Of a DNA stretch of 36,610 bases, positions 11,916 to 31,520 are shown piece by piece (the stretch's first letter is position 1; each line of letters starts with the position of its first letter). The DNA is from an uncultured Muribaculaceae bacterium (GTDB taxonomy: Bacteria; Bacillota_I; Bacilli_A; RF39; UBA660), in contig CAZWXX010000001.1 in assembly GCA_964637865.1 (NCBI GenBank), positions 1-36,610 of the forward strand, written 5' to 3'. The notes beneath the pieces are model-generated. The model saw nothing but the letters and a program-made list of their open reading frames with translations, had not been told where the DNA came from and made no database searches. A program made the translations under genes and the position numbers.

Positions 11916-13337
11916 ATGCAGAAAGTAAAAGAAAATTTTCAAATAGAGTATTTGTTTTATCTCTTTTTAGTGATTTCACCTTTTTTGGATGCTTTTAGTT
12001 ATTGGTATCGAGAGTGGTTTCCTAATGCAGTTTTATCTCCAACTACTATTTTAAGACTTGTGATCCCTTGTGGTTTGCTCTTGTTTATTTTTATTACGCA
12101 AAAGAAGAGTCGAGGCTATTTGCTTATTGGTGGGGGCGTGTATTTTCTCTATGCTGTTTTTCATCTTTTGATTTATCAAAAGTTTTTGACGGAAAGTGCT
12201 TATGGTAGTGTTTTTCACGAGGCACAATATATTCTTAATTATACTTATATGATAATGGTATTTTATATTTGTTTTCATTTTAGTCAGGAGAGAAAATTAT
12301 CTAAGATTTATCAGGCGCTTACTCTTTTTTTAGCTGGGTATGTTGTTCTTTTATATTTAGCCCTTATAACTGGAACATCTTCTTCTACTTATATTGATGG
12401 AGTTGGTTATAAAGGATGGAATGCCTCAGGTAACGCGATTGGGTCGTTGCTCCTTATTACTCAAGTGATTTTACTTCCTTACTTTTTTAAGGAGAAAAAG
12501 TGGTACTATTTTATTCTACTTGGTTCCACTGGTGTTTATTTAATGGTATTTTTAGGAACTCGTGTTGGACTTTTAGGATTTCCTCTTATTTTGATTTTTT
12601 ATTTTATTTGTTTTCTGTTGGGAAAGAAAAAGAAGAAAGTTCTATCTCGTAAAAAGGTTCTTGTATCCATTCTTGTTTTTGTGACTTGTCTTGTTGGTGC
12701 CGTTTTTCTAGGGACTCATTCGTCTACATTAAAGCGTCAAAAGAATTTGGAGGAAGAGCAGAATCAAGTCGTTGACAAGAAGACACAAGAAGTTTCTCAT
12801 ATTACGGGTGATGCACTAGACTATGTTAAGAAAATCGAAGCGGGTAAGATGGATGCACATTTTATGGATCAAGCACAACAGAAGTCTTTGGTAGAGATGA
12901 AGAAGACTGCTGACAGACTAGAACTCGATAATAGTAAAAGACGTATTCAGCAACTCCTATATCATACTTATTTGGTGAAAAATCAGAAAAGTATTAGTAG
13001 AATTCTATTTGGAAATGGATATCTTTCAAGTTATAGTGAGATGACTTTAGAGATGGAACTTGCTTCTCTTCTTTATAACTTTGGGCTTTTTGGATTTATT
13101 CTTTATTTGGGATTTTTCCTTATTATATTAGTGAAATCGTTTATTACTTTATTTAAGCATTTTGATAGGCGTGATGTTTCCTATTTATACTATTTGTTTG
13201 GAGTAGCACTTGTTTATGGCTTATCACTTATGGCAGGATATACATTCTTTCACGTTTCCTCAATGATAGTGATTGTTCTTTTACATATTTTATTAGATGA
13301 TGAATGTAGAAAGGTGGAGAAGACTTGTGATGATTAG
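11916..13337 (+). CDS. Polytopic membrane protein, O-antigen ligase / Wzy polymerase-like
   Basis: About 10-12 TM helices with one large charged loop (KRQKNLEEEQNQ...KRRIQQLL) before the last TM bundle, the Wzy_C/O-antigen-ligase architecture. AGGAGG RBS lies inside the end of the upstream gene. Confidence 0.6.
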   Translation: MQKVKENFQIEYLFYLFLVISPFLDAFSYWYREWFPNAVLSPTTILRLVIPCGLLLFIFITQKKSRGYLLIGGGVYFLYAVFHLLIYQKFLTESAYGSVFHEAQYILNYTYMIMVFYICFHFSQERKLSKIYQALTLFLAGYVVLLYLALITGTSSSTYIDGVGYKGWNASGNAIGSLLLITQVILLPYFFKEKKWYYFILLGSTGVYLMVFLGTRVGLLGFPLILIFYFICFLLGKKKKKVLSRKKVLVSILVFVTCLVGAVFLGTHSSTLKRQKNLEEEQNQVVDKKTQEVSHITGDALDYVKKIEAGKMDAHFMDQAQQKSLVEMKKTADRLELDNSKRRIQQLLYHTYLVKNQKSISRILFGNGYLSSYSEMTLEMELASLLYNFGLFGFILYLGFFLIILVKSFITLFKHFDRRDVSYLYYLFGVALVYGLSLMAGYTFFHVSSMIVIVLLHILLDDECRKVEKTCDD

Positions 13338-13851: not shown

Positions 13852-13953
13852 TTATATAAGAAATATTTTATTTTGTGGCTTTAAAATCTATATAAAAAAG
13901 GAAAGGAATTTAATATAGGCTATTTTAGCTAGCATTAAATTGTGTGTGATGAT

Positions 13954-15228
13954 ATGAAAGTTGCTTTGAATGAGTATTTACCTAGATTATTAGATGAAAA
14001 ACTAGATGAGTATTTAAAAGTATTTGGTGCTTTATCAGTAGAAGGACCTAAATGGTGTGGAAAAACTTGGACATCTTCTAAACACGCGCAAAGTGCGGTT
14101 TATTTTGATGATGAAGAAACAAAAGAAAAGGCACTACTTGATTTAGAACTTGTATTAAATGGGGAAGCTCCCGAATTGATTGACGAATGGCATTTGGTTC
14201 CAAAAGTTTGGGATCGAGTAAGACGTAAATGTGATGAAGATTCCAAAAAAGGGAAATATATTTTAACTTGTTCTACTGAGCTTAATGATGATGCTAAAAA
14301 GGCTATTTTTCATTCTGGTGCTGGTAGAATTGGTAAAATTAAAATGCATACGATGTCTCTTTACGAATCACAAGATTCTACAGGAGAGGCTTCTTTAACG
14401 GCAATGCTTGAAGGACGTCAGAAAAACGTTAATGTTAAAATACCTGAACTTACAGAAATTGCTCGTCTTATTATTCGAGGTGGTTGGCCTAGTAATATTA
14501 AAGTGGACTCTAAAAACGTAGGTTTAATTCCTAAAAGTTATATAGAATCTATTCTTGATAAAGATATGAATGATGATAAAAAACGCGATAAAAATAAAAT
14601 GAGAATGTTACTTCGTTCCCTTGCAAGAAATGAAGGGGCGATTGCTAGTAACCAAACACTTATTAAAGATACTCAAGAATATGCAACGGAAGATGAATTT
14701 ATTGAAAGCCGAATTACGGTTTCTGATTATTTGGATGTTTTAGCTCGGCTTCATTTAATAGAAAATCAGGAGTCATATCGAGAAAATTATCGTTCTAAAG
14801 AAAGAATTGGCAAATCTCCTAAAAGACATTTAACTGATCCGTCACTTGCGTGTGCTGTACTTAATTTAACAGAAGAAAAACTACTAAAGGATTTGAACAC
14901 ATTTGGTTTTATGTTTGAATCTCTTGTTGAAAGAGATCTAAGGATTTATATGGAATATTTGGATGGTCATTTTTATCATTTTCGTGATAATGTAACTGGG
15001 CTTGAAGTGGATTCTATCTTAGAATTTGCTAATGGGGACTATGCTGCAGTAGAAATTAAACTTGGCTATAATAAAGTAGAGGAAGCGAAAAAAGAATTAT
15101 TAAAATTTTATGATAATATGGTAACGAAACCTAAATTTATGTGTATTATTACTGCTAATTTTTCATCGGTTGTTAAAGACTCTGAAACAGGAATTTATAT
15201 TCTTCCAATTACAGCGTTACGACCTTAG
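13954..15228 (+). CDS. AAA+ ATPase (COG1373 / AAA_14 plus DUF4143 type) with a C-terminal PD-(D/E)xK nuclease-like motif
   Basis: Walker A GPKWCGKT, Walker B ELIDEW, C-terminal GLEVDSILEF...AAVEIKLG (D...ExK). The start could be ATG 13954 or GTG 13942; neither has a good RBS. Confidence 0.8.
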   Translation: MKVALNEYLPRLLDEKLDEYLKVFGALSVEGPKWCGKTWTSSKHAQSAVYFDDEETKEKALLDLELVLNGEAPELIDEWHLVPKVWDRVRRKCDEDSKKGKYILTCSTELNDDAKKAIFHSGAGRIGKIKMHTMSLYESQDSTGEASLTAMLEGRQKNVNVKIPELTEIARLIIRGGWPSNIKVDSKNVGLIPKSYIESILDKDMNDDKKRDKNKMRMLLRSLARNEGAIASNQTLIKDTQEYATEDEFIESRITVSDYLDVLARLHLIENQESYRENYRSKERIGKSPKRHLTDPSLACAVLNLTEEKLLKDLNTFGFMFESLVERDLRIYMEYLDGHFYHFRDNVTGLEVDSILEFANGDYAAVEIKLGYNKVEEAKKELLKFYDNMVTKPKFMCIITANFSSVVKDSETGIYILPITALRP

Positions 15229-17299: not shown

Positions 17300-17339
17300 A
17301 ACTTAGAAATTTATTTAGTTGAAATTGTGGGGGATTTGG

Positions 17340-18464
17340 ATGAATAAAGTGAATGAACGACAATCAAATTATGAATTGTTGCGTATTGTATCTATGCTAT
17401 TTATAATTTTGTGGCATGTAATTTTTCATGGTGAAATATTAGATAATTGTGAAAATGAAGTACTACGATTATTTTTTTTATTCATGGCTTTTGTAGTTCA
17501 TGTGCACGTAAATTCATTTGTTTTAGTTACTGGTTATTTTCAATCTCAAAACAAATTTAAACAATCTAGTGTATGGTCTCTTATTAATGCAAGTTTATTT
17601 TATAGGATTGTTTTTGTTATTTTATTTTCATGTTTGGGATTAGTCACATTAACAAATTTAGAATTATTACAGCGTACTTTTATTTTAAATATTGAAGATT
17701 ATTGGTTTATTACTACTTATCTTATTTTGTATTGTTTAAGTCCGTTTTTAAATAAATTTATTCGTTATGTCGATAAAAGACATTATGAAAAGTTATTGTT
17801 ATTACTTTTTTTTCTAATGTCTGTTATTCCTTATTTATCTGGAAATAGAATATTTAATAATAATGGTTATACATTATATAATTTTATTTTTCTATATTTA
17901 ATTGGTGGTTATCTTCGAAAATATGATATTACTAAAAGCTTTATTTTAAAAAGAATTTCTAAATCTCTTTTGCAGATTATTTTGATTTGTTGCTTTTTCT
18001 TTTGTGCATGTTTAAATTTTTCGATATATGAGACTTCACATTTTTTACTTGGAAGTCATCCTATTATTGATGATGTTGCTAATAATTTTATTTCTATGTC
18101 TTTTTCTTATAGTAATCCAATGATTATGATACAAACTATTGTATTTTTTCTATTCTTTGGTACTCTAAATTTTCAAAGTAAAATCATTAATTTTTTATCT
18201 AAGTTCACTGTAGAAGTTTACCTTATTCATAGTAACATTTTTGTAAATCGACATTTATATCAATGGTTGGGGATTTCTGGTGTATCAATTATTTCATATA
18301 GTTTTATTGGAAGGGTATTGGTTGTAGTATTTTTTATTTATGTTAGTTGTTCGATTTTAGGATTTCTTCGACAATCTTTATTTCGATTTATTTATCATAG
18401 AAAACTAGCATATAAAATTCGAAAAAAATATTATAATTTTCTAAATAATATTTATATAAGTTAA
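17340..18464 (+). CDS. Acyltransferase family 3 (AT3, OafA/WecH-like) membrane O-acyltransferase
   Basis: N-terminal NYELLRIVSMLFIILWHV (AT3 catalytic-His motif) and about 10 TM helices. ATG 17340 follows the RBS GTGGGGGA. Confidence 0.82.
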   Translation: MNKVNERQSNYELLRIVSMLFIILWHVIFHGEILDNCENEVLRLFFLFMAFVVHVHVNSFVLVTGYFQSQNKFKQSSVWSLINASLFYRIVFVILFSCLGLVTLTNLELLQRTFILNIEDYWFITTYLILYCLSPFLNKFIRYVDKRHYEKLLLLLFFLMSVIPYLSGNRIFNNNGYTLYNFIFLYLIGGYLRKYDITKSFILKRISKSLLQIILICCFFFCACLNFSIYETSHFLLGSHPIIDDVANNFISMSFSYSNPMIMIQTIVFFLFFGTLNFQSKIINFLSKFTVEVYLIHSNIFVNRHLYQWLGISGVSIISYSFIGRVLVVVFFIYVSCSILGFLRQSLFRFIYHRKLAYKIRKKYYNFLNNIYIS

Positions 18465-18482
18465 AAGATTTGTAGGCATTTA

Positions 18483-18512
18483 TTGTAATGATAATTTATT
18501 TTATGATATAAT
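18483..18512 (+). promoter_or_regulatory. Internal extended -10 promoter ahead of the amino-sugar block
   Basis: -35 TTGTAA (18483-18488), 18-nt spacer, TGaTATAAT (18504-18512), within a 78-nt intergenic gap. Confidence 0.55.
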
Positions 18513-18542
18513 GAAATTGATAAAGATATTGGGAGTGATAAA

Positions 18543-19670
18543 ATGATAGCATTTAATAAACCTTCTATAACTGAAAAAGAAATTTCTAATGTTGTAGATT
18601 GCTTGAATGGGGGAAAGTTATGTGGTGATGGTAAGTATACACAACTTGTGAATGAATGGTTTGAAAATCAGGGTATTTCTAATTTTTTGTTAACTACTTC
18701 TGGTACTGCATCTTTGGAAATGGCAGCCTTGTTATGTGATTTTCAAGAAGGGGATGAAGTAATTGTGCCTTCTTATACTTTTGTTTCTACAGTAAATGCT
18801 TTTGCACTTCGTGGGGCAAAACCTGTATTTGTAGATATTGATTCTAAAACTATGAATATTGATGCTGATAAGATAGAGGCGGCTATTACAGAAAGAACGA
18901 AAGCAATTTTTCCAATTGATTATGCAGGTGTTGTTTGTGATATGGATAAAATTACATCGATTGCAAAAAAATACCATCTTCTTGTTGTAGAAGATGCTGC
19001 GCAAGCGGTAGGATCTTATTATAAAGGAAGACCGGCAGGTACTTTTGGTGATTATGGCTGTTATAGTTTTCATGAAACTAAAAACTATGTTATGGGTGAA
19101 GGCGGCGGTTTTATTGCTAATAATGATGAATGCTTTTTGAATGCTGAAATTATTCGTGAAAAGGGAACTAATCGTAGTCAATTTATGAAAGGTTTTGTGG
19201 ATAAATATACTTGGCATAAAATAGGATCTTCTTATTTGCCTTCTGATATTTTAGCAGCCTTGTTATATGGCCAATTAGAACGATTTGATGAGATTATGGA
19301 GAAAAGAATGCATGTCTGGAATACTTACCACGAGTTTTTAAAACCATATGAGGAAAAAAAATTGTTACTTCGTCCTTTTATTCCGGAAGAATGTCAACAT
19401 AATGCTCATATGTATTATATAATTTTGCCTACTGCTGAGAAACGTGATGAGATGATTTCGTATTTGCGTGAAAATGATATTATAGCGCCATTTCACTATA
19501 TTCCGCTTCATTTATCACCCGTTGGGAAAAAATATGGTTATAAAGAGGGTGATCTTCCTATTACAGAGGAATATGCTGCTAGACTTATTAGACTTCCCTT
19601 ATCTGCTGAGATGACAGAAGAAGAAATTTCTACGGTTTGTAAGACTTTAGCAAAGAAGTTGGGTGATTAG
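18543..19670 (+). CDS. wecE: dTDP-4-keto-6-deoxy-D-glucose 4-aminotransferase (DegT/DnrJ/EryC1 family, WecE-like)
   Basis: Colinear with E. coli WecE as recalled: GKLCGDG, SGTASLEMAALL, PSYTFVSTVNAF, PLP-Lys motif FHETKN, IREKGTNRSQF, VDKYTW..IGSSYL, NAHMYYI, FHYIPLH. C4 stereochemistry (Fuc4N vs Qui4N) cannot be inferred. Confidence 0.88.
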   Translation: MIAFNKPSITEKEISNVVDCLNGGKLCGDGKYTQLVNEWFENQGISNFLLTTSGTASLEMAALLCDFQEGDEVIVPSYTFVSTVNAFALRGAKPVFVDIDSKTMNIDADKIEAAITERTKAIFPIDYAGVVCDMDKITSIAKKYHLLVVEDAAQAVGSYYKGRPAGTFGDYGCYSFHETKNYVMGEGGGFIANNDECFLNAEIIREKGTNRSQFMKGFVDKYTWHKIGSSYLPSDILAALLYGQLERFDEIMEKRMHVWNTYHEFLKPYEEKKLLLRPFIPEECQHNAHMYYIILPTAEKRDEMISYLRENDIIAPFHYIPLHLSPVGKKYGYKEGDLPITEEYAARLIRLPLSAEMTEEEISTVCKTLAKKLGD

Positions 19671-19671
19671 T

Positions 19672-20193
19672 ATGTTAGAAAATGAAATATTAGAGTTGCG
19701 ACCTATTTCTGTAGAAGATACAGACAATATTTTAAAATGGAGAAATAGCAAGGAAGTTAAAAAGTTTTTCTGTATGCAAGAAGATTTAACTAGAGAAGGA
19801 CATTTATCATGGTTAGAAAATAAAGTTAAAACAGGGAAAGTTGTTCAATATATTATTCATGTAAAAGATTCTGATAAAGATTTGGGGTCTGTTTATATTA
19901 GAAATATTGATAAAGAACATTCAAATGGAGAATTTGGTATTTTCATTGGTGAAGTTTGCGATAGAGGTCATGGTTATGGAACAATGGCTATGAAGCTTAT
20001 TTGTGATTATGCTTTTAAAAAGTTACATCTTCATAAGATTTATTTGAGAGTTTTAGAAGATAATAAAGGAGCGATTGCTAGTTATAAGAAAAATCAGTTT
20101 GAAGAAGAGGGAATTTTTAAAGATCATGTGTATAATCCAGAAGTTGGTTATTTAAATCTAGTATTTATGGGAAGGATTAATCCGTATGAGTAA
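19672..20193 (+). CDS. GNAT N-acetyltransferase, PseH/RimL-like (probable amino-sugar N-acetyltransferase)
   Basis: LELRPISVEDTDNILKWRNSKEVKKFF...HLSWLENK pattern as in PseH-type enzymes, plus acetyl-CoA loop RGHGYGTMAM. ATG starts 2 nt after the wecE-like stop. Confidence 0.78.
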   Translation: MLENEILELRPISVEDTDNILKWRNSKEVKKFFCMQEDLTREGHLSWLENKVKTGKVVQYIIHVKDSDKDLGSVYIRNIDKEHSNGEFGIFIGEVCDRGHGYGTMAMKLICDYAFKKLHLHKIYLRVLEDNKGAIASYKKNQFEEEGIFKDHVYNPEVGYLNLVFMGRINPYE

Positions 20194-21124
20194 AATATCT
20201 TATGTTATTCCCTGTTATAGATCTGAACATACTATAAAGGATGTAGTATTGGAATTAGAAAAATTGATGGTTAGCGAATTGAAAAAGTATCAGTATGAAA
20301 TTATTTTGGTAAATGATGGTTCTCCTGATGATCTTCATTCTGTTATTCAAAAAGAGTTTTCAAACGATTCTCATGTTCAATATATTAGACTTGCCAAAAA
20401 TTTTAGTCAACATAATGCAGTTATGGCAGGACTTAATCATGCTAAGGGAAGTATTATTGTATGTTTGGATGATGACGGGCAGACTTCTGTTTTAGAAATT
20501 CCTAAATTGGTTTCTGCTTTAAATGATGATATTGATGTTGCATATGCTAAATATCCTAATAAAAAGCATAGTTGGTTTCGTAACCTTGGTAGTAAATTTA
20601 ATGATTATATGTTAAAGACTATGTTAGATAAGCCTAAAGATTTATATATTTCTAGTTTCTTTGCTATGAAAAGTTATGTGAAGAATGAAATGATCAAATA
20701 TTATAATCCTTATCCTTATTTAGGTGGACTTATTCTTCGGATTACGAATCGAATTATAAATGTAGAAGTAAGCCATTTTGATCGTGTTGAAGGTAGTTCA
20801 GGATATACTTTTAAAAAACTTTTGAAATTATATGTTAATGGATTAACTAATTTTTCTGTAAAGCCATTACGGGTTTCTCTTACATTTTCTTTTCTTTTTA
20901 TTCTAATTGCTGTTATATTTGGTATTTATTTAATTGTTAATAAGATTATTAATCCTTTAACTCCAATGGGATGGACTTCTACGATGATTTTGATTTTATT
21001 TATTGGTGCTGCTATTACTTTTCTATTAGGGATCATTGGGGAATATGTTGGAAGAATTTATATTTCTATTAATAAAATTCCACAATATGTAGAATTGCGA
21101 GATGATGAAAATGCCAAAAATTAA
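20186..21124 (+). CDS. Polyprenyl-phosphate glycosyltransferase, GT2, ArnC-like
   Basis: YVIPCYRSE, VNDGSPDD, NFSQHNAVMAGLNHAKG (ArnC NYGQHSAIMAGFSHVTG), LDDDGQ, SWFRN, two C-terminal TMs and GEYVGRIY (ArnC GEYIGRIY). 8-nt overlap with the upstream GNAT. Confidence 0.85.
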   Translation: MSKISYVIPCYRSEHTIKDVVLELEKLMVSELKKYQYEIILVNDGSPDDLHSVIQKEFSNDSHVQYIRLAKNFSQHNAVMAGLNHAKGSIIVCLDDDGQTSVLEIPKLVSALNDDIDVAYAKYPNKKHSWFRNLGSKFNDYMLKTMLDKPKDLYISSFFAMKSYVKNEMIKYYNPYPYLGGLILRITNRIINVEVSHFDRVEGSSGYTFKKLLKLYVNGLTNFSVKPLRVSLTFSFLFILIAVIFGIYLIVNKIINPLTPMGWTSTMILILFIGAAITFLLGIIGEYVGRIYISINKIPQYVELRDDENAKN

Positions 21125-21455
21125 AAATCTTATTTTTATTCATATTGCTTTTCTTATTTATTCTATTGCCTCTTTTCTTTCAAAATGTGCTGGAACGAGC
21201 AATAATTTTCTTTTTTTCCTTTTCTTTTATGGATGTAGTTTCTTATGTCTTGGAATTTATGCTATTCTTTGGCAAAAAATTTTAAATAAAAATTCACTTA
21301 TTTTTTCTTATTTAAATAAAGGTATTACTTTGTTTTGGGGATTACTTTTTGGCTTTTTCTTTTTTCAAGAAAAGGTGAAATGGAATATGATAGTTGGAAT
21401 TGTTATAGTTATATTAGGAATTGTACTAGTTAGTTCTGAGGAGGAAACATCATGA
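21102..21455 (+). CDS. Small 4-TM EamA/SMR-like membrane protein, ArnE-like flippase subunit candidate
   Basis: 117 aa with four hydrophobic helices. C-terminal half ...FQEKVKWNMIVGIVIVILGIVLV resembles ArnE ...[23 protein letters not shown]. Overlaps the upstream GT2; the start could be 21102, 21105 or 21111. Confidence 0.65.
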   Translation: MMKMPKIKNLIFIHIAFLIYSIASFLSKCAGTSNNFLFFLFFYGCSFLCLGIYAILWQKILNKNSLIFSYLNKGITLFWGLLFGFFFFQEKVKWNMIVGIVIVILGIVLVSSEEETS

Positions 21456-21766
21456 TTATTTTATTTCTTTTTTCCGTAATGATTGCTAGTATTAGTCAGA
21501 TACTTTTGAAGCTTGGAAGTAAAAATGAAAAAAATTTATATATTAATAAATATACGATTGGTGGTTATTTCATTTTGATTATTTCTACCTTTTGTACTGT
21601 TATGGCTTATAAAAAAATTCCTTTATCTACAGGGGTATTACTTGAAACTTTAAGTTACATTTTTGTGCCATGTCTGAGTTTTCACTTTTTAGGAGAAAAA
21701 TTAAGTCGAAAAAGAATAATTGGAATGGTTGTTATTGTGATTGGAATTATAATTTTTAGTTTGTAG
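21452..21766 (+). CDS. Small 4-TM EamA/SMR-like membrane protein, ArnF-like flippase subunit candidate
   Basis: 104 aa. N-terminus LFSVMIASISQILLKLGS vs ArnF LFSVIIASVAQLSLGFAAS. ATGA overlap with the preceding gene; RBS GAGGAGGA. Confidence 0.65.
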   Translation: MIILFLFSVMIASISQILLKLGSKNEKNLYINKYTIGGYFILIISTFCTVMAYKKIPLSTGVLLETLSYIFVPCLSFHFLGEKLSRKRIIGMVVIVIGIIIFSL

Positions 21767-21774
21767 GAGGAATT

Positions 21775-22695
21775 ATGAAAGGTATTATATTAGCTGGTGG
21801 AAAGGGTACAAGGCTTTATCCAATGACAAAAGCAGTATCCAAACAGTTACTTCCTTTATATGATAAACCAATGATTTATTATCCACTTTCCATTTTGATG
21901 CTTGCTGGTATTAAAGAAGTGTTAATTATTTCGACACCTCATGATTTGGATCAATATAAAAAACTACTTGGTGATGGTAGTGATATTGGTATGACTTTTG
22001 TTTACAAAGAACAAAAAGAGCCAAATGGTTTGGCGGAAGCATTTATTATTGGGGAAGACTTTATTGGAAATGATAGTGTATGTTTGATTTTAGGAGATAA
22101 TGTTTTTTATGGATCTACTTTACAAGAAAAATTGAAAGTAGCTTCTAATCTTACAGAAGGAGGTATTATTTTTGGTAGTTTAGTAGACGATCCTACTGCC
22201 TTTGGTGTTGTAAAATTTGATGATGATTTTAATGCTTTATCTATTGAAGAAAAACCAGAAAATCCACAATCTAAATGGGCAGTACCAGGACTTTATTTTT
22301 ATGACAATGATGTTATTGAAATTGCTAAAGGTGTAAAGCCATCTGCTAGAGGTGAAGTAGAGATTACTTCCATTAATAATGAATATTTACGTCGTAAGAA
22401 ATTAAAAGTTATTACTTTAGGTAGGGGAGTAGCGTGGTTAGATACTGGTACTCCTAAGGGAATGAGTCAAGCAAGTAGATTCGTCGAAATTATTCAAGAA
22501 CGGCAAGGACTTTATATTTCTTGTATCGAAGAAATTGCTTATTATCAAGGATTTATTTCTAAAGATCAATTAAGAAAATTAGGCGAAAATTTGAAAAAAA
22601 CTGATTACGGTCAATATATATTAGGAATTGCGAATAGCAAAGAGGAGGAAAATTATGAAAATATTAGTAACTGGTGGGGCAGGATTTATAGGTAG
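21775..22695 (+). CDS. rmlA: Glucose-1-phosphate thymidylyltransferase
   Basis: MKGIILAGGKGTRLYPMTKAVSKQLLPLYDKPMIYYPLS is the canonical RmlA N-terminus. RBS GTAGGAGGA. The 3' end overlaps rmlB by 41 nt. Confidence 0.95.
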   Translation: MKGIILAGGKGTRLYPMTKAVSKQLLPLYDKPMIYYPLSILMLAGIKEVLIISTPHDLDQYKKLLGDGSDIGMTFVYKEQKEPNGLAEAFIIGEDFIGNDSVCLILGDNVFYGSTLQEKLKVASNLTEGGIIFGSLVDDPTAFGVVKFDDDFNALSIEEKPENPQSKWAVPGLYFYDNDVIEIAKGVKPSARGEVEITSINNEYLRRKKLKVITLGRGVAWLDTGTPKGMSQASRFVEIIQERQGLYISCIEEIAYYQGFISKDQLRKLGENLKKTDYGQYILGIANSKEEENYENISNWWGRIYR

Positions 22696-23665
22696 TAACT
22701 TTCTACATTATATGGTAGATAAGTATCCTAATTATCAATTTGTTTGTTTAGATGCTTTAACTTATGCGGGAAATTATAATAACATTAAAGAATTAGAAGA
22801 ATGTTCTAATTATAAATTTGTAAAAGGGGATATTACAGATACTTCTTTTGTTGATCAATTATTTCTTGATGAGAAATTTGATTGGGTTGTAAATTTTGCA
22901 GCGGAGAGTCATGTAGATAATTCTATTAAAAATCCTGGTGTGTTTTTAACCACTAATATTTTAGGAACGCAAGTACTAATGGATGCTTCTCGTAAGTATG
23001 GTATTAAACGTTATCATCAAGTATCTACTGATGAGGTTTATGGCGATTTGCCACTTGATAGACCTGATTTGAAGTTTACTGAGGAAACACCAATTCACAC
23101 ATCTAGTCCATATTCATCTAGTAAAGCAGGAGCGGATTTACTTGTTGGTGCTTATTATAGAACTTATGGTCTTCCTATTACAATTTCACGTTGTTCTAAC
23201 AATTATGGTGCTTATCAATTCCCAGAAAAATTGATTCCTGTTGTCATTAGTAAAGCGATGAATGATGAAAAGATTCCTGTTTATGGAAAGGGAGAAAATG
23301 TTAGAGATTGGATTCATGTTCATGATCATAATGTTGGTGTTGATTTGATTTTGCATAATGGTCGTGTTGGTGAAGTTTATAATTTAGGCGGACATTCTGA
23401 AAAGACTAATTTAGAAGTAGTTAAAACGATTTTAGATACACTTGGAAAAAGCGAGGATTTAATTGAATTTGTCGCAGATCGACCTGGTCATGATTTGCGT
23501 TATGCAATTGATTCTACAAAGGCAGAAAAAGAATTAGGTTGGGAAAGAACTTTTAATTTTGAGGATGGAATGAAAGAGACGATCAAATGGTATGTAAATA
23601 ATCAGAAGTGGATTGAAGATATAAAAAACGGAAGCTATAAGGAGGCATACATACATGATAAATAA
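22655..23665 (+). CDS. rmlB: dTDP-glucose 4,6-dehydratase
   Basis: MKILVTGGAGFIGSNF (NAD Rossmann motif), catalytic YSSSK, HVDNS and RPGHDLRYAID. RBS AAAGAGGAGGA precedes ATG 22655. Confidence 0.95.
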   Translation: MKILVTGGAGFIGSNFLHYMVDKYPNYQFVCLDALTYAGNYNNIKELEECSNYKFVKGDITDTSFVDQLFLDEKFDWVVNFAAESHVDNSIKNPGVFLTTNILGTQVLMDASRKYGIKRYHQVSTDEVYGDLPLDRPDLKFTEETPIHTSSPYSSSKAGADLLVGAYYRTYGLPITISRCSNNYGAYQFPEKLIPVVISKAMNDEKIPVYGKGENVRDWIHVHDHNVGVDLILHNGRVGEVYNLGGHSEKTNLEVVKTILDTLGKSEDLIEFVADRPGHDLRYAIDSTKAEKELGWERTFNFEDGMKETIKWYVNNQKWIEDIKNGSYKEAYIHDK

Positions 23666-25355
23666 ATTTAAAAAATATATTAGTAATCATAAATTCTATT
23701 TAGGAGTTATGATTTTCTTTACATTATGTTTGTCTATTATTGTTTCGCAAGTTGTACTGTATGCTGATGATTTTTCATTGCATGCAAAAGCATTAAAATA
23801 TGATATTAATATTGTATTACATGAGTTTTCTTATATATACTCCCATTGGGGTGGGGGACCTACTCCAGGATTTGCAATTATTGTCTTAATGTTAGGGTTA
23901 ACTTTTTGGAAAATTATGAATATTATTATGATTTCATCTAGTGTTCATATGTTTGTAAATATGGTTATTCCTAAGAATAAAAGAAATGATAAAAATCGAT
24001 CATTGGTTGCATTTATTGTTTGGTCGTTTATCTTTTTAATGAATATTGGAATATCTAGGGAAACTATGTTTTGGTTTGATGGTTCTATGGCCTATGTTTT
24101 AACTACTTTTCTTTCTATCAGTTATATATATTGTTGTTATAAATTTATTTTAGAAGGAAAAAAAGTGCTTAATTGGCATTATGTTGCAATGTGTGTATTA
24201 GGATTTTTTGCTGGCTGGAATGGTCCTCAAGCAGGTGCAATTACGGTTTTAATTGGTTTTCTATTTGTTTTATGGCAGAAATTTATAAAGAAAGAAAAAG
24301 TTAATAAACTTATTCTTATTAGTAATTTTTTTCTTTTAGCGGGATTTATTATTTTATATATTGCGCCGGGTAATGCTATTCGTGCTGCTACTTTTAAAGA
24401 GTATAGTGCATTAGGATTTTTGGATAAAATTATTTATAGATTAGATGTTGTGGTTGATTTAGTAACAAATTGTACTGCTCATAGTCATTTTATGTTACCT
24501 ACTTATTTTTATATGTTTGCTATTTTATTAGTTGGAGTTTCTTGTGCGATTAAAAATAAAATTGCTAAAAGGGACAAAAAACTATATATGCTTTCCATTA
24601 TTATTAGTATTGCTTATATATTTTTATATGGTTTATATCTATATGGTGGACAAAATCATATGATTTATAGTTTTTTACATGAGATTTTTAATTATACGAT
24701 TGAAGGAAAAAATGGTGTTTTTGATATTCTTATTTTGTATTTCAATTATGCATTTTTTATTTCATTTCTTTTATCTTTGCTATATTTGTCATGGCAAGTT
24801 TCTAAAAATAGAAATCAAATTATGCTTTTTATAGCTTTTATAGGTGCTATCGGAACACAGGTTGCGATGTTAATGGCGCCTTATTCACCACCACGTTCTA
24901 TTTATATTACTATTATATTTTTTGTTTTGGCAATTGCTATTTTAGTATATGAATTACGAGATAATAAAGAAGTACTTGCAATTTGTATGATTAGTGGTTT
25001 ATGTTTTTACCAGATAGAATATGCTTTATGGTTGATTATTATATTTATTCTTCTTCATTATCTTCCACGTAAAGTAAATTACTATTATTTAGTATTCATT
25101 ATGATTTTAGTACCTGTAATTTCTACTATTATGATTACTTTTAAAGGCTATCGTATGTCTAGACGAGATAATATGTTTAATTTACAACAAATTGAAAAGT
25201 TTAAAGATAAGGGACAAAAAGGTACACTCGTGTTTTATAAATTACGTGATGAAAACTTTGCTTTTACACCACTTTATTCTGATGCTCAATGGATTCGAGA
25301 TGATGTTATAAAATATTTTAATTTAAAGAATAATGTTAAAATTAAAGTGAAATAA
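23655..25355 (+). CDS. Large polytopic membrane protein, candidate GT-C-fold glycosyltransferase (DUF6056-like)
   Basis: 566 aa with at least 12 predicted TM helices. Acidic YADDF motif lies immediately after TM1, the position of catalytic Asp residues in GT-C enzymes. ~70-aa hydrophilic C-terminus. RBS AAGGAGG; 11-nt overlap with rmlB. Confidence 0.5.
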   Translation: MINKFKKYISNHKFYLGVMIFFTLCLSIIVSQVVLYADDFSLHAKALKYDINIVLHEFSYIYSHWGGGPTPGFAIIVLMLGLTFWKIMNIIMISSSVHMFVNMVIPKNKRNDKNRSLVAFIVWSFIFLMNIGISRETMFWFDGSMAYVLTTFLSISYIYCCYKFILEGKKVLNWHYVAMCVLGFFAGWNGPQAGAITVLIGFLFVLWQKFIKKEKVNKLILISNFFLLAGFIILYIAPGNAIRAATFKEYSALGFLDKIIYRLDVVVDLVTNCTAHSHFMLPTYFYMFAILLVGVSCAIKNKIAKRDKKLYMLSIIISIAYIFLYGLYLYGGQNHMIYSFLHEIFNYTIEGKNGVFDILILYFNYAFFISFLLSLLYLSWQVSKNRNQIMLFIAFIGAIGTQVAMLMAPYSPPRSIYITIIFFVLAIAILVYELRDNKEVLAICMISGLCFYQIEYALWLIIIFILLHYLPRKVNYYYLVFIMILVPVISTIMITFKGYRMSRRDNMFNLQQIEKFKDKGQKGTLVFYKLRDENFAFTPLYSDAQWIRDDVIKYFNLKNNVKIKVK

Positions 25356-25395: not shown

Positions 25396-25424
25396 AATGC
25401 CCAGTTATTTAAGGGGGATTTTTG

Positions 25425-26135
25425 ATGAAGAAAAAAGAGATAGAGATATTAAAAAGTAGAAATTTGATTGTAAAGGTTGTTTTAGTTTGTATTATTATCT
25501 TATTGAGTTTTATGCTAGTGTTACAAAAAATGACACTTAGTAAAGAAATATTATATAATCCATATGATATTAAAACGGCTGATATGGATAATTTTGTTTT
25601 ATTAGGTGATTCTATTACTGCTGGCTATCCAGTAGAGGAATTTTTTGATGATTTGCCAGTTGTTAATAGTGGAGTGAACGGTTATACTACAACTGATATT
25701 TTAGATCATTTAGAAGAGATGGTTTCTGTTTATAATCCTACTAAAGTATTTTTATTAATAGGTGTTAATGATATTCGTGGCAATGTTGATATTAAAAAAG
25801 TTGTTGATAATATCTCAAAAATTATTAATCAAATAAAAAAACTTAGACCTAGTGCTAAAATTTATTTGGAATCTATTTATCCAATCAATGATACAGATCA
25901 AGATTCTATTGATCATGATGCTGTAGCAGGACGAAAAAATAGTGATATTCAATCTATTAATAAGCAGTTAGCTAAGAAATATAAAGATAGTGATGTTACT
26001 TATATTGATGTTTATAAGGAATTGGCTGATAAAGATGGAAACTTGCAGTTGAAATATACTCAAGAAGGTGTTCATATGAGTTCCTTGGGCTATTTAAAAG
26101 TTACAAAAGTGTTACTTCCTTATTTTCAAGATTAA
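25425..26135 (+). CDS. Membrane-anchored SGNH/GDSL hydrolase-type esterase/acyltransferase
   Basis: N-terminal TM IVKVVLVCIIILLSFMLVL. SGNH blocks: I LLGDSITAG, II GVNGYTT, III LIGVNDI, V QEGVHMS. RBS AAGGGGGA. Confidence 0.85.
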   Translation: MKKKEIEILKSRNLIVKVVLVCIIILLSFMLVLQKMTLSKEILYNPYDIKTADMDNFVLLGDSITAGYPVEEFFDDLPVVNSGVNGYTTTDILDHLEEMVSVYNPTKVFLLIGVNDIRGNVDIKKVVDNISKIINQIKKLRPSAKIYLESIYPINDTDQDSIDHDAVAGRKNSDIQSINKQLAKKYKDSDVTYIDVYKELADKDGNLQLKYTQEGVHMSSLGYLKVTKVLLPYFQD

Positions 26136-26169: not shown

Positions 26170-26640
26170 ATGATAAAAGTGATGTTTATTTCTTCAACTG
26201 GAGGACATTTGTCGGAGTTATTGCAGTTAAATTCTTTGTTTTCAAAGTATGATTATCAAATTGTAACAGAAAAAACTAAAAGTACTAAAAATTTAACTAA
26301 AAAGTATTCAGGTCATATAAATTATCTTATGTTTGGAACAAAAGATCATCTTTTTACTTATCCATTTAGACTTTTCTATAATTGTCTGAAAAGTTTTTAC
26401 TTTTATTTGAAATATCAACCTGATGTTATTATTACTACTGGGGCACATACTGCTGGTCCTATGTGTTGTTTAGGAAAGATATTTGGTAGTAAAATTATTT
26501 ATATTGAATCCTTTGCTAATATAAATACAAAAACGTTGACAGGAAGAATTATCTATCATTTTGCTGATTTATTTGTTGTTCAATGGAAAGGAATGCTTGA
26601 ATTATATCCTGATGCTATTTATGGGGGAAAGATTTTCTAG
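26170..26640 (+). CDS. Alg14-like / PssD/Cps14F-like glycosyltransferase accessory subunit
   Basis: 156 aa. MFISSTGGHLSELLQL and ITTGAHTAGPMC motifs typical of the N-terminal half of a split MurG/GT28-like enzyme. Confidence 0.8.
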   Translation: MIKVMFISSTGGHLSELLQLNSLFSKYDYQIVTEKTKSTKNLTKKYSGHINYLMFGTKDHLFTYPFRLFYNCLKSFYFYLKYQPDVIITTGAHTAGPMCCLGKIFGSKIIYIESFANINTKTLTGRIIYHFADLFVVQWKGMLELYPDAIYGGKIF

Positions 26641-26648
26641 GAGGAATT

Positions 26649-27539
26649 ATGATATTAGTTACATTAGGAACACAAGATAAAGATTTTTCTAGATTGTTGA
26701 GTGCAATAGAAAGAGAAATTAATAGGGGGAGTATTCAACAAAAGGTAATTGTACAAGCAGGGTGTACACGATACAAGTCTAATGCTATGGAAGTATTTGA
26801 TTTAATTTCTTCTGATGAATTAGATCGTTTAATGCGAGAAGCGGATATTGTAATTACTCATGGTGGTGTTGGTTCTATTATTACAGCATTAAAATATCAT
26901 AAAAAAGTTATTGCAGCAGCACGATTAAAAAAATATGGGGAACATACTAATGATCATCAAACACAAATTGTTAAGGAGTTTGCTAAACAAGGATATTTAT
27001 TAGAATTGCGTGATTTTAATAGTTTAGGGAAATTATTAAAAAAAATAGAAAAATTTTCTCCTAAATCTTATCACTCAGATAATGATAAAATGATTCATTT
27101 GGTGGATGATACTATACAAAAGTGGAGTGTAAATGGCATTTTTTCTAGAAGTCAGAAATTGCGTGAATTATTTTTGTATCTGTTTTTTGGTGTTTTTACT
27201 ACTGTTATTAATATTTTGACATACTATATTTTTGCAAGGCTATTTTCTGTTTATTATCAACTAAGTAATATAATTGCTTGGATTCTATCAGTTTTATTTG
27301 CTTTTATCACTAATAAATTATTTGTATTTCAAAGTAAGAAAGTATCAGTTGTTGATAACTTAAAGGAAGTTTTTTCTTTCTTTATCTTTCGGATTTTGTC
27401 TCTTCTTTTTGATATGTTCTTTATGTATATAATGGTTTCTTTTTTAAGTATAGATGATTTAGTTTCAAAAATTATTGTTAATGTTTTAGTTATTATTATA
27501 AATTATTTGATTAGTAAAATTCTTGTTTTTAAAAGGTAG
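26649..27539 (+). CDS. Fusion protein: Alg13-like (Glyco_tran_28_C, PssE/Cps14G-like) catalytic subunit plus a C-terminal GtrA-like 4-TM domain
   Basis: N-terminal ~160 aa: MILVTLGTQDKDFSRLL, ADIVITHGGVGSI, GEHTNDHQTQIV. C-terminal ~125 aa: four TM helices with GtrA-like LFLYLFFGVFTTVINILTYYIF...NKLFVF...ISKILVFK. Confidence 0.75.
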   Translation: MILVTLGTQDKDFSRLLSAIEREINRGSIQQKVIVQAGCTRYKSNAMEVFDLISSDELDRLMREADIVITHGGVGSIITALKYHKKVIAAARLKKYGEHTNDHQTQIVKEFAKQGYLLELRDFNSLGKLLKKIEKFSPKSYHSDNDKMIHLVDDTIQKWSVNGIFSRSQKLRELFLYLFFGVFTTVINILTYYIFARLFSVYYQLSNIIAWILSVLFAFITNKLFVFQSKKVSVVDNLKEVFSFFIFRILSLLFDMFFMYIMVSFLSIDDLVSKIIVNVLVIIINYLISKILVFKR

Positions 27540-27547
27540 GTGTTCTT

Positions 27548-28495
27548 ATGAAAAAAGATAAAATATCTGTAGTAATTCCTTGCTATAATGAAGAAGAGGC
27601 TATTCCTATTTTTTATGATTCAATTAATAAAATTTCTAAAAAGATGGATCAAGTTCAATTTGAATTTTTATTTATTAATGATGGAAGCTTTGATAGTACT
27701 CTGGAAAAGATCAAAGAATTAGCTACGAAGGATAAAAGGGTACGATATTTATCATTTTCTAGGAACTTTGGAAAAGAGGCTGGTATGTATGCAGGATTTG
27801 AAAATGTGACTGGTAATTATGTTGCGATTATGGATGTAGATATGCAAGATCCACCGGAAATGCTTTTAACGATGTATAGAGAAATTCAACAGGGAGATTA
27901 TGATTGCATTGGGTTACGTACTAATTCTCATGAAGGATATTCTTTTTTACGAAAAATATGTACAAAATGTTGGTATAAATTGATTGGAACTATCTCTTCT
28001 ATTCAACAGGTTCCAGGTGCTCGTGATTTTAGGTTAATGAAACGTCAAATGGTAGATTCTATCATTGCTATGAAAGAATATAACCGTTATTCAAAAGGGA
28101 TTTTTGGTTTTGTTGGTTTTTCTACTAAATGGATTGTTTATGATGCACCTGCTCGAGTAGTTGGAAAGACTACTTGGAACTTTTGGAAACTATTTAAATA
28201 TGCATTAGAGGGAATTCTTGCTTTTTCAACTACGCCTCTTGTATTATCGGCTTTTATTGGTTTATTTTTTTGTTTTATTTCATTTATTGTAATTTTTGTA
28301 ATTATTGTTAAGACTCTTATTTGGGGGGATCCTGTTGGAGGGTGGCCTTCTCTTGCGTGTATTATTATGTTTGTTAGTGGCATTCAGTTGTTTTTTTTCG
28401 GGATTATGGGAATGTATTTGTCAAAAGCATATTTAGAAGTAAAAAAACGTCCAATTTATATTGTTAAAGAAACAGAAAAGGATTTAAAAAAGTAG
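27548..28495 (+). CDS. Polyprenyl-phosphate glycosyltransferase, GT2, GtrB/CsbB-like
   Basis: ISVVIPCYNEEEAI, INDGSFDST, SRNFGKEAGMYAGF, DVDMQDPPE, two C-terminal TMs. Confidence 0.87.
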   Translation: MKKDKISVVIPCYNEEEAIPIFYDSINKISKKMDQVQFEFLFINDGSFDSTLEKIKELATKDKRVRYLSFSRNFGKEAGMYAGFENVTGNYVAIMDVDMQDPPEMLLTMYREIQQGDYDCIGLRTNSHEGYSFLRKICTKCWYKLIGTISSIQQVPGARDFRLMKRQMVDSIIAMKEYNRYSKGIFGFVGFSTKWIVYDAPARVVGKTTWNFWKLFKYALEGILAFSTTPLVLSAFIGLFFCFISFIVIFVIIVKTLIWGDPVGGWPSLACIIMFVSGIQLFFFGIMGMYLSKAYLEVKKRPIYIVKETEKDLKK

Positions 28496-29559: not shown

Positions 29560-30654
29560 ATGAGAAAGAAAAAATTATTATTTTTAGGATATGATTTAAG
29601 AATTGGGGGAATAGAAAATGCCCTTATTGCTTTACTACATAATATTAATTATCAAAAGTATGATGTAACATTAATATTAGAAAAAGTTAATCCAAATGAA
29701 ATAAAGAGAGTTCCAAGTCAAGTTAGAATACAAGAATATAAAGTTAGTAATCATTCTATTTTGTTTTTTCGAAAGATTTCTAATCTTTTCAGAAGAATTC
29801 GTTTTTTTATAAAAAATTATCATCGTTATCAATTCTCATGTAGTTATGCTACTTATTCTATTCCAGGTAGTGTACTTGCTCGAATTGCATCATCTAATAA
29901 TAGTCTTTATGTTCATAGTAATTATGCTCAGTTATATAATAGAACAGAGTTTGTAAACTTTTTTAATCATTTGAAAATAGATAAGTTTCGGACTATTTTC
30001 TTTGTATCTAATGAATCAAAAGCTGATTTTTTAAAGTATTTTCCTTTCTTGGCTACTAAGACTGTTGTATGCAATAATTTTATTGATGGACACTTAATTT
30101 TGGAAAAATCATTACAAGAGATTAATATTGAGAGAAAGTCACAATTTGTTCTTACTTTTGTTGGACGTTTAGATGATACTTCTAAACAATTAACGAAGTT
30201 GTTTTCTGTTATAGAGTATTTAAAGTCTCATCATGTTTCTGTAGAATGTTGGATTGTAGGTGATGGACCTGATAGAGAAAAATATGTAAAAATTGTTAGA
30301 ACTATGAAATTAGAAAAATCAATTTTATTTTTTGGAAGGCAAAATAATCCATATCCTTATATGAGAAAAAGTGATTTTATTATTCTTACTTCTAAGTATG
30401 AGGGATTTCCAGTTGTTTATTTGGAAAGTATTATTTTAAAGAAAAAAATTATTTCTACTATTGATGTTAGTGATGAATTTATATCTATTCCAAATCGATT
30501 TGGTTATATTATTTCGCAAGATGAAGAAAAAATGAAAAAAGAAGTTTTTGATATTTTAGAAGATGACTCTTTAGAATATGAAAATATTGATTTTTCTATT
30601 TTGAATAAGCAAAAGCAGGAGATATTAGAAGCTATATTTGACCAATTGTGTTAA
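29560..30654 (+). CDS. Family 4 (GT-B) glycosyltransferase
   Basis: LRIGGIENAL N-terminus and C-terminal EX7E region SKYEGFPVVYLESI. Confidence 0.85.
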   Translation: MRKKKLLFLGYDLRIGGIENALIALLHNINYQKYDVTLILEKVNPNEIKRVPSQVRIQEYKVSNHSILFFRKISNLFRRIRFFIKNYHRYQFSCSYATYSIPGSVLARIASSNNSLYVHSNYAQLYNRTEFVNFFNHLKIDKFRTIFFVSNESKADFLKYFPFLATKTVVCNNFIDGHLILEKSLQEINIERKSQFVLTFVGRLDDTSKQLTKLFSVIEYLKSHHVSVECWIVGDGPDREKYVKIVRTMKLEKSILFFGRQNNPYPYMRKSDFIILTSKYEGFPVVYLESIILKKKIISTIDVSDEFISIPNRFGYIISQDEEKMKKEVFDILEDDSLEYENIDFSILNKQKQEILEAIFDQLC

Positions 30655-31511: not shown

Positions 31512-31520
31512 GAGGAGTAT

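Follow-up and report, generated by a model that had tools for sequence, protein, structure and literature searches.

The principle of extracytoplasmic glycosylation by three or four components is already established in Gram-negative bacteria, in the Gtr and Arn systems, and in Firmicutes. In the CsbB/GtcA/YfhO, Lactococcus CsdAB-CflA and Streptococcus GacIJKL systems, a polyprenyl-phosphate glycosyltransferase (GT) of the GT-A type, a flippase and a GT-C enzyme decorate Firmicute wall polymers exported by ABC transporters; the systems described draw on UDP-Glc, UDP-Gal or UDP-GlcNAc, and their flippases are GtrA or Wzx proteins (PMC9574508). Here we analyse an eight-gene block at positions 18483-25355 of a 36.6-kb stretch of DNA from contig CAZWXX010000001.1 (the window, meaning the whole stretch analysed; G+C about 28-30%), which is a conserved, uncharacterised variant of this principle. 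Its genes encode RmlA, RmlB, a WecE-type aminotransferase, a GNAT N-acetyltransferase, a family 2 glycosyltransferase (GT2), two small membrane proteins that we call S1 and S2, and a 566-aa polytopic protein of the DUF6056 family. Judged from its sequence, the block is probably a self-contained, operon-encoded glycosylation module of the three-component type that brings its own sugar-supply genes.

In the proposed pathway RmlA and RmlB would form dTDP-4-keto-6-deoxy-D-glucose, the WecE orthologue would aminate this at C4 to dTDP-4-amino-4,6-dideoxy-D-galactose (dTDP-Fuc4N), and the GNAT would acetylate the amine to give dTDP-Fuc4NAc. The ArnC-like GT2 would then load the sugar on to undecaprenyl phosphate (Und-P) at the inner face of the membrane; S1 and S2, as an ArnE/ArnF-like heterodimer of EamA-half proteins, would flip the Und-P-Fuc4NAc; and the DUF6056 protein, as a GT-C enzyme of the GtrC type whose first outside loop bears a DD motif, would attach the sugar as a side-chain decoration, most likely to the ABC-exported wall glycopolymer of the surrounding locus, which includes ABC-2 permease and ATPase genes (30648-32258) and large GTs (32268-36108). 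What the analysis computed were pairwise and family assignments, topology and gene linkage; from these we infer the chemistry of the block, in particular the GNAT substrate, the dTDP-sugar specificity of the GT2, flipping, GT-C catalysis and the acceptor. The succession of nucleotide sugar, Und-P-sugar, flipping and extracytoplasmic transfer had been put forward in an earlier, sequence-only reading of the window. As a bioinformatic proposal it fits every hidden Markov model (HMM) and pairwise result, and it is strongly reinforced by the conservation of synteny across loci.

The Arn (Pmr) pathway (ArnB, ArnA, ArnC, ArnD, ArnE/F and ArnT) resembles the block in being encoded by one operon, in an aminotransferase step that precedes the N-acylation of a nucleotide-linked 4-amino sugar, in its ArnC-type GT2 (31% identity to the GT2 of the block over the full length), in the EamA-half pair that S1 and S2 resemble, and in its polytopic transferase. 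The donor in the block, however, appears to derive from a dTDP-hexose by way of RmlAB and the WecE orthologue, whereas that of Arn derives from UDP-GlcA. Acylation would be by a GNAT acetyltransferase rather than by the ArnA formyltransferase, and the final transferase belongs to DUF6056, with no detectable similarity to ArnT; nor does the block have a detected ArnD homologue. As the host is probably a Firmicute, and so has no lipid A, the acceptor must differ. With the Gtr systems (GtrA, GtrB and GtrC; Salmonella gtrLT2_I) the block shares the three-component scheme and the family of its 566-aa protein, which Pfam names after STM0557. The Gtr cargo, in contrast, is glucose derived from UDP-Glc, the Gtr flippase is GtrA (PF04138), to which S1 and S2 have no similarity, and the GT2 of the block is nearer to ArnC than to GtrB. 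The Gram-positive systems share the locus context of an ABC-2 transporter and many GTs, but the block builds in a dTDP-amino-deoxysugar pathway and an ArnE/F-like pair.

Three further systems overlap with parts of the pathway. Region 3 of the Xanthomonas campestris wxc locus (wxcK to wxcO) provides a dTDP-derived FucNAc side branch on an ABC-type rhamnan, and mutants in wxcK (aminotransferase) and wxcN (small membrane protein) both lose the branch (PMC4878081). As in the block, a dTDP-derived N-acetyl-amino-6-deoxyhexose is added as a side branch, although the wxc target is a Gram-negative O antigen. The wxcK/wxcN branch offers a partial precedent for a dTDP-derived sugar, with a lipid intermediate that is hypothetical there too; its sugar is reportedly the 3-acetamido isomer, and WxcN is said to be GtrA-like. 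In Citrobacter youngae O1 and relatives, a small 4-transmembrane (4-TM) EmrE/ArnE-like protein is the proposed flippase for an Und-P-pentofuranose and, as in the block, is accompanied by a GT-C enzyme (PMC11127046). There, however, the lipid-linked donor comes from phosphoribosyl pyrophosphate rather than from a nucleotide sugar by way of a GT2, the sugar carried is Ribf or Araf, and a single small protein takes the place of the heteropair. The Fuc4NAc branch of enterobacterial common antigen (ECA; RffH, RffG, WecE, WecD and WecF) has the same predicted dTDP-Fuc4NAc, RmlA and RmlB being equivalent to RffH and RffG and the aminotransferase of the block being a WecE orthologue; but the ECA acetyltransferase WecD is not similar to the GNAT, and ECA uses the cytoplasmic transferase WecF on a lipid II linked to undecaprenyl pyrophosphate (Und-PP), whereas the window encodes no WecF-family protein.

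In the open-access literature we found no description of a module built on dTDP-Fuc4NAc or dTDP-Qui4NAc, of Und-P-Fuc4NAc or Und-P-Qui4NAc, or of a Firmicute ArnC-like/ArnEF-like pair, which is weak evidence of absence. The novelty implied by the sequence-only reading is also narrower than it seemed, EmrE/ArnE-like flippases (PMC11127046) and a dTDP-FucNAc branch (PMC4878081) having already been described.

Conservation and variants of the module in relatives

Conserved synteny is the strongest evidence for the pathway reading. Genes for the aminotransferase, GT2, S1, S2 and DUF6056 protein occur together in about 14 distinct loci, with DUF6056 identities of 29-53%, and the linkage of the 566-aa gene to the block, whose loss in relatives had been named beforehand as fatal to the reading, is kept in these loci. 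Their hosts are metagenome-assembled genomes (MAGs) of gut Clostridia and Bacilli and one MAG labelled Saccharibacteria; the DUF6056 homologues at 29-35% identity are from gut MAGs labelled Clostridia, Bacilli, Clostridium sp. and Candidatus Saccharibacteria. Among the loci compared (L001-L020), the eight-gene order is identical in metagenome contigs L001-L003, L008 and L009 (DUF6056 identity 44-53%), and the arrangement WecE-GNAT-GT2-S1-S2-(RmlAB)-DUF6056 is found in L001-L005, L008-L013 and L016-L019. The RmlAB genes change place within this order, lying upstream of the GT-C gene in L010 and L012 and downstream in L013, L016 and L018, and being absent from the neighbourhood in L004, L005, L011, L017 and L019. 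The flanks vary, with ABC-transporter or other glycopolymer-assembly genes near the module in most loci with a visible flank. Because many independent loci with differing flanks keep the core genes together, we conclude that the clustering is not due to chance.

The many further GT genes around the block, together with the precedent of WpsA/B-WpsJ in Lactococcus (PMC9574508), suggest another use of an Und-P-sugar, as a primer that cytoplasmic GTs elongate and that a polytopic protein moves en bloc as an oligosaccharide or polymer. We consider this very unlikely, since known systems of that kind have a 12-TM Wzx flippase in place of 4-TM EamA-half proteins (PMC9574508), and the module travels between loci as a compact unit with no particular additional GT accompanying it. 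An Und-P-sugar that donates a single sugar as a decoration is the reading that we prefer.

Within the conserved module one step is exchanged. In L014 (5017-11701), L020 (2048-8754) and L015 (9986-18522) the GNAT is replaced by an ATP-grasp enzyme and an SDR, the ATP-grasp enzyme of L015 being fused to RmlB in a 717-aa protein. The GT2s of these loci form a distinct subtype, 60-79% identical to one another and about 29% identical to that of the window. In this variant the same 4-amino sugar may carry a different N-acyl or an aminoacyl group. The N-acylating enzyme and the GT2 thus vary jointly against a constant set of WecE, S1, S2 and DUF6056 protein, which is the pattern expected if the GT2 recognises an N-acylated 4-amino sugar as its cargo.

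The exchange also bears on whether the acyl group stays on the sugar. The Arn pathway has a protect-then-deprotect logic (E. coli arn operon annotation), and the GT2 is nearer to ArnC, and S1 and S2 nearer to ArnE/F, than to the Gtr components. The block could by this token be a functional analogue of Arn, in which N-acetylation gives transient protection, the sugar is deacetylated after lipid loading, and a cationic 4-amino sugar on the wall lowers susceptibility to cationic peptides. We regard this as highly improbable. A tblastn search with E. coli ArnD found no homologue in the window or in L001-L020, and an ArnD-like deacylation step was set aside on that result; with ArnD and Polysacc_deac_1 queries no deacylase was found within the module in any locus, a Polysacc_deac_1 gene being detected only in L006 and L010 and outside the module in both. 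The swap of GNAT for ATP-grasp enzyme, moreover, suggests an acyl group that is kept as a variable epitope. As these two queries detected no deacylase within the module, the acyl group is probably retained.

Three of the related loci show features of their own. L015 (JAFWSN010000002.1), from the MAG labelled Candidatus Saccharibacteria, carries DUF6056, RmlAB, GT2, WecE, S1 and S2; its module is either a horizontal transfer into an episymbiont of the candidate phyla radiation or an error of binning or labelling. L006 (8001-17695) encodes a 30%-identical DUF6056 homologue without WecE, GNAT, S1 or S2, near FdtA (a 3,4-ketoisomerase) and a DegT aminotransferase, a context that hints at a 3-amino-3,6-dideoxyhexose version; two more proteins of ~570 aa with no Pfam match are encoded downstream of the homologue. 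L001 (11715-16668) contains in addition a DUF2142 polytopic protein, a short GT2 with a DUF2304 protein, which we take to be the GacI/GacJ architecture, and a triplet of a second GT2 and two EamA proteins, and therefore appears to stack several lipid-carrier glycosylation modules in one locus.

Predicted sugar supply and lipid loading

All eight genes of the block were recovered at the positions given by the sequence-only reading, with domain families that agree with it (Table 1). They are co-directional, neighbouring genes either overlapping by 4-41 nt or being spaced by 8 nt. No terminator-like site lies at any gene junction of the block, the sole plus-strand match inside it being at 18995-19010, within the aminotransferase gene. 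Two starts differ from the opening of the open reading frame (ORF). The GNAT homologues have 173 aa, a length that is obtained from the ATG at 19672 and not from the GTG at 19663 with which the ORF opens; the RmlB ORF opens with a TTG at 22628, but TIGR01181 aligns from ORF residue 11, making the ATG at 22655 (MKILVTGG) the likely start. Upstream of the operon, a promoter-like site had been taken as the block's own promoter; it is plausible only as a candidate, because this AT-rich DNA contains fewer such matches than shuffled versions of it would (73, with 93 +/- 10 expected), and it is indistinguishable from background.

Table 1. Genes and signals of the block, with the matches on which each assignment is based (bit scores are given against model cut-offs)
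Feature	Position	Strand	Evidence
Candidate sigma-70-type promoter	18483..18512	+	TTGTAA, 18 nt, TG-extended TATAAT; 10/12 positions match; in 78-nt gap upstream of operon
Ribosome-binding site, GGGAG	18531-18535	+	ahead of aminotransferase gene
WecE-type dTDP-4-keto-6-deoxy-D-glucose 4-aminotransferase, 375 aa	18543..19670	+	NF008687 equivalog 546.3 bits vs 375
GNAT N-acetyltransferase, 173 aa	19672..20193	+	Acetyltransf_3 78.6 bits; TIGR03585 PseH 99.4 vs cut-off 93.1 (narrow pass)
Polyprenyl-phosphate glycosyltransferase, ArnC/GtrB family GT2, C-terminal two-TM hairpin	20186..21124	+	full-length structure matches
S1, 4-TM EamA-half membrane protein, 117 aa, putative ArnE-like flippase subunit	21102..21455	+	EamA 5.7e-4; NCBIfam ArnE 4.9e-6
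S2, 4-TM EamA-half membrane protein, 104 aa, putative ArnF-like flippase subunit	21452..21766	+	EamA 37.1 bits vs 28.2; NCBIfam ArnF 4.3e-7
RmlA, glucose-1-phosphate thymidylyltransferase	21775..22695	+	TIGR01207 447.9 bits vs cut-off 360.65
RmlB, dTDP-glucose 4,6-dehydratase	22655..23665	+	TIGR01181 466.9 bits vs cut-off 365.1
Polytopic membrane protein, 566 aa, putative GT-C transferase, DUF6056/GT_STM0557_N	23655..25355	+	PF19528 96.5 bits

The assignments of RmlA, RmlB and WecE from their sequences are secure. RmlA and RmlB both score above TIGRFAM equivalog cut-offs, as expected of the enzymes said to make dTDP-4-keto-6-deoxyglucose, and the statements that the window holds no rmlC, rmlD or WecF-type transferase gene stand, no ORF of at least 100 aa matching any of these families. 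The aminotransferase exceeds the cut-off of TIGR02379 (515 bits against 435) as well as that of NF008687, shares 53% identity with E. coli WecE in a full-length alignment of 371 aa, and has WecE structures as its best PDB relatives (6blg and 4piw, E about 1e-120; 4piw 4.3e-120). For these reasons the galacto product, dTDP-Fuc4N, is a better guess than the gluco isomer, and the choice between Fuc4NAc and Qui4NAc left by the sequence-only reading can be narrowed to probably Fuc4NAc on WecE orthology; the stereochemistry at C4 is a prediction of a kind that sequence cannot prove. For the GNAT, which had been called PseH/RimL-type, the PseH model is passed, if marginally. PseH acetylates N4 of another nucleotide-linked 4-amino-4,6-dideoxyhexose, and the position of the gene between those for WecE and the GT2 points to the 4-amino group of the dTDP-sugar as the predicted substrate. 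No similarity to E. coli WecD/RffC, the ECA acetyltransferase, was detected in the GNAT.

The GT2 aligns end to end with enzymes of both reference families, its residues 2-302 with residues 8-309 of ArnC (9hwj, 1.6e-39, 139 bits) and its residues 3-302 with residues 27-325 of GtrB (5ekp, 1.6e-30, 110 bits). It has the features of the GtrB/ArnC/DPMS type, namely a GT-A domain with a DxD motif (LDDDGQ, conserved with ArnC), juxtamembrane helices with the juxtamembrane motif, and a C-terminal TM hairpin. The motifs NFSQHNAVMAG, SWFR and GEYVGRIY, quoted earlier in support of an ArnC-type polyprenyl-phosphate GT2, pair with NYGQHSAIMAG, SWFR and GEYIGRIY of ArnC. That proposal holds for motifs and architecture but not for orthology, the score against the ArnC equivalog NF007986 (156.4 bits) being below its cut-off of 529; by sequence the protein appears to be a polyprenyl-phosphate GT of a distinct subtype that leans to ArnC. 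The donor of ArnC is also a 4-N-acylated sugar. A second GT2 in the window (27548-28495) is clearly GtrB-like, with 230 bits against the GtrB structure (sll0501) and 115 against ArnC.

The second-best NCBIfam match of the GT2 is PgfS (136.8 bits, E 9e-40), and the window encodes both a 483-aa protein (5888-7339) rich in Pro, Ser, Thr and Val and a PASTA protein in which one tract is rich in Asn, Ser and Thr. These points favour a protein acceptor, the Und-P-sugar being used for O-glycosylation of Ser/Thr-rich disordered regions of surface proteins as in streptococcal systems of the GtrB/PgfS type (protein glycosylation of this type is described in PMC12041528). We think this unlikely, the PgfS score being far under its cut-off of 500 and the candidate substrate proteins not being co-conserved with the module; most relatives with a visible flank, moreover, have the module in glycopolymer loci with an ABC-2 transporter and several GTs, and GtrC, the sole genetically characterised DUF6056 namesake, acts on polysaccharide. 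A wall glycopolymer thus remains the preferred acceptor.

Predicted flipping and extracytoplasmic transfer

S1 and S2 have the layout of ArnE and ArnF, being paralogues (hhalign 95.5%) of ~110 aa with four TM segments, encoded by adjacent genes that overlap by 4 nt within the operon of the GT2. Both are present, adjoining the GT2, in 14/14 distinct S1/S2-bearing loci. The family profile of S1 finds ArnE first (hhalign 94.7%, E 5.7e-8), ahead of MdtI (82%) and EmrE (53%); S2 is 26% identical to E. coli ArnF across nearly the whole length (E 1e-4), and the N-terminal motif of the small proteins, LFSVMIASISQILL, aligns with LFSVIIASVAQLSL of ArnF. EmrE-type SMR drug/H+ antiporters require a glutamate in TM1 (E14 in EmrE). 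The equivalent position is Y in S1 and A or S in S2, and no TM1 Glu is found in S1, S2 or their aligned homologues; the Multi_Drug_Res Pfam match of S2 (18.4 bits) is also below its cut-off of 23.7. Grouping of the small proteins with drug-efflux SMR proteins, which had been named as a possible refutation, is therefore not what these tests indicate. GtrA similarity was likewise sought in S1 and S2 and not found (hhalign probability <=0.2 against E. coli YfdG; no PF04138 match). A GacJ-like activator role was considered for S1 and S2 and rejected, both being of the EamA type; GacJ relatives are DUF2304 proteins, and L001 encodes one of these separately, beside its short GT2. We conclude that the mimicry of ArnE/ArnF claimed for the pair is seen in the lean of the profiles, the motif and the missing SMR glutamate but does not extend to the curated models, and that the resemblance is weakly indicated by sequence, real but remote.

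The 566-aa protein matches PF19528, now named GT_STM0557_N in Pfam, well above the gathering cut-off of 27 (E 2e-27, residues 13-322), and all of the homologues found carry this domain. STM0557 is the gtrC of Salmonella gtrLT2_I, an operon responsible for a single Glc side branch, in which glucose is linked alpha-1,4 to the galactose of the O antigen (PMC2909390, PMC3688519); the likeness of the 566-aa protein to Salmonella GtrC is one of Pfam family name. The AlphaFold2 model, built on an alignment of 27 homologues, has a pLDDT of 90.7 and a pTM of 0.92; it has about 15 TM helices and, at the C-terminus, a small alpha/beta domain. Directly after TM1 comes the sequence VVLYADD, whose D38 and D39 are invariant in the 27 homologues and start the first of two short helices. 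The other invariant residues are WGGGPTP (65-71), W140xDG, APGN (237-240), R243, R262, Q402, P409 and R414. With the N-terminus predicted inside, every invariant residue falls in a predicted outside loop, and K and R residues number 26 in inside loops against 9 in outside loops. An acidic motif after TM1 combined with outside-facing invariant residues is the pattern expected of a GT-C enzyme. What points to a polyprenyl-phosphate-linked donor is solely the linkage of the gene to those for GT2, S1 and S2. Of the earlier description as an ArnT-like GT-C enzyme, the ADD motif after TM1 stands and sequence similarity to ArnT does not; 'ArnT-like' would hold only as a functional analogy, and membership is in the GtrC-type DUF6056 family.

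The DUF6056 profile retrieves 2303 cluster representatives at E <= 0.001, and our open-access search found the family mentioned only incidentally, with no characterised member besides the Salmonella GtrC namesake. Relatives also occur in phages. The one good match in the BFVD database is an uncharacterised protein of Oenococcus phage phiS13 (V5UQY6; Foldseek E 6.6e-10, TM 0.53/0.65), which says nothing about function, and tblastn against phage genomes gave two weak partial matches in unannotated records, one of them in Enterococcus phage Efs 1-1-1 (OR846611.1, 33527-33955, E 3e-7). In lactic acid bacteria, such phage proteins might act as glycosyltransferases of lysogenic conversion.

A number of results weigh against the pathway as proposed. 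On the supply side, the closest PDB matches of the GNAT are polyamine acetyltransferases of the SpeG type, the PseH structures 4ri1 and 4xpk being weaker, and rmlCD may lie elsewhere in the genome, the negative result covering the 36.6-kb window. As the GT2 is under every equivalog cut-off, its donor is predicted from context alone, and we found no polyprenyl-phosphate GT2 that uses a dTDP-sugar in the open-access literature. S1 and S2 score well under the curated ArnE and ArnF cut-offs (26.7 against 92 bits for NF011625 and 30.4 against 99 for NF002816), and hhalign scores S2 no better against ArnF than against EmrE. For the 566-aa protein, Foldseek with the model gave no PDB match at E <= 0.001. 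In the comparison with ArnT and PglB that the sequence-only reading had proposed, neither of these nor PMT was among the 50 PDB matches listed; the single structurally meaningful one was EmbB (7bvc_B; probability 0.93, with transporter noise at about 0.1; TMq 0.35, E 0.09). EmbB is a GT-C arabinosyltransferase. A profile HMM of the 27 homologues found nothing among PDB sequences, and hhalign gave the family a probability of 0.2 against E. coli ArnT and no similarity to the GtrC-like E. coli YfdI. E. coli ArnT itself matches PF02366 at 211 bits and YfdI has no Pfam match, whereas the 566-aa protein has no PMT or PMT_2 match and, even at E <= 10, matches only PF19528. A GT-C fold is thus suggested by family label, motif and predicted topology rather than by a clean fold match.

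If the weak evidence for a GT-C fold and the near-equal hhalign matches of S2 to EmrE and ArnF are given full weight, the block might involve no lipid monophosphate: an ordinary cytoplasmic transferase would place dTDP-Fuc4NAc on an Und-PP-linked chain, S1 and S2 would be unrelated transporters, and the DUF6056 protein would be a polymerase, a ligase or something else. We rank this as the least likely of the rival explanations, with only a slight chance of being right, given the complete GtrB/ArnC architecture of the GT2, with its TM hairpin and juxtamembrane motif, and the lack of the SMR glutamate in S1 and S2. The strict co-occurrence of GT2, S1, S2 and DUF6056 protein, down to 29% DUF6056 identity, would also be hard to explain otherwise than by a route through an Und-P-linked sugar.

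Surrounding locus and implications

From about 9.9 kb on, almost all genes of the window are on the plus strand and have envelope-glycan functions. A walled Gram-positive host would fit the PASTA domains, the NAGPA gene and the TagGH-like ABC transporter, and the relatives of the PASTA-domain protein, at about 49% identity, are from MAGs labelled Firmicutes or Bacilli bacterium. The block is flanked by an Acyl_transf_3 gene (17319-18464) and a GDSL/SGNH gene (25422-26135), whose homologues in L001 adjoin each other (17728-19672) while the eight-gene block sits elsewhere; this gives the block the look of a cassette whose insertion has split an O-acetyltransferase pair. In L008, too, the block is placed differently with respect to the conserved large GTs. 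Beyond the GDSL/SGNH gene lies a second lipid-carrier branch (26170-28495), comprising Alg14, Alg13 fused to a GtrA domain, and the GtrB-like GT2, with no obvious partner GT-C gene next to it; the only other large polytopic candidate seen is an O-antigen-ligase-like protein (11916-13337).

Other parts of the window have features of separate interest. The 483-aa protein is membrane-anchored, consists almost entirely of low-complexity sequence and has no Pfam match; convergent with its gene is that of the PASTA protein (7409-9280, minus strand), which has 623 aa, five PASTA repeats and an Asn-rich tract and no kinase or transpeptidase domain. An AAA_14/DUF4143 ATPase gene (13942-15228) stands between GNAT and GT1 genes, out of functional context in a glycan locus. 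At the left end, a pyruvate formate-lyase ORF (100-2115) gives 671 aa from an internal ATG, compared with about 741 aa in homologues, and its Pfam match starts at profile position 53, so that the gene probably starts near or before the window end; the activase follows at 2087-2845. Between the activase region and an rRNA-type methyltransferase gene are tandem paralogous ORFs of 196 and 182 aa (3188-3778 and 3814-4362), with similar N-termini (IIKNxxIxYETLxI) and no Pfam match.

A broader proposal, which we advance tentatively and with less than even confidence, is that the block represents the first recognised family of polyprenyl-phosphate GT modules with a dTDP-activated N-acyl-4-amino-4,6-dideoxyhexose as donor. 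Its N-acylating enzyme would be interchangeable (GNAT for acetyl, ATP-grasp for acyl or aminoacyl groups) with a co-varying GT2 subtype, DUF6056 would be its dedicated GT-C enzyme, and the module would act as a plug-in surface-epitope cassette in gut Firmicutes and possibly Saccharibacteria, ArnE/F-type heterodimers then being general flippases for Und-P-aminosugars beyond lipid A. If the pathway itself is confirmed, the donors known for enzymes of the GtrB/ArnC type would include dTDP-deoxyaminosugars as well as UDP-sugars, the large and uncharacterised DUF6056 family would gain a function and a sugar, and ArnE/F-like pairs would be seen to work outside polymyxin resistance. The module might also serve as a glycoengineering part for the periplasmic addition of Fuc4NAc to an existing polymer. 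Since it is compact and portable and is carried by gut lineages that are abundant though uncultured, it could plausibly make the surface vary from strain to strain, with effects on phage receptors and immune epitopes.

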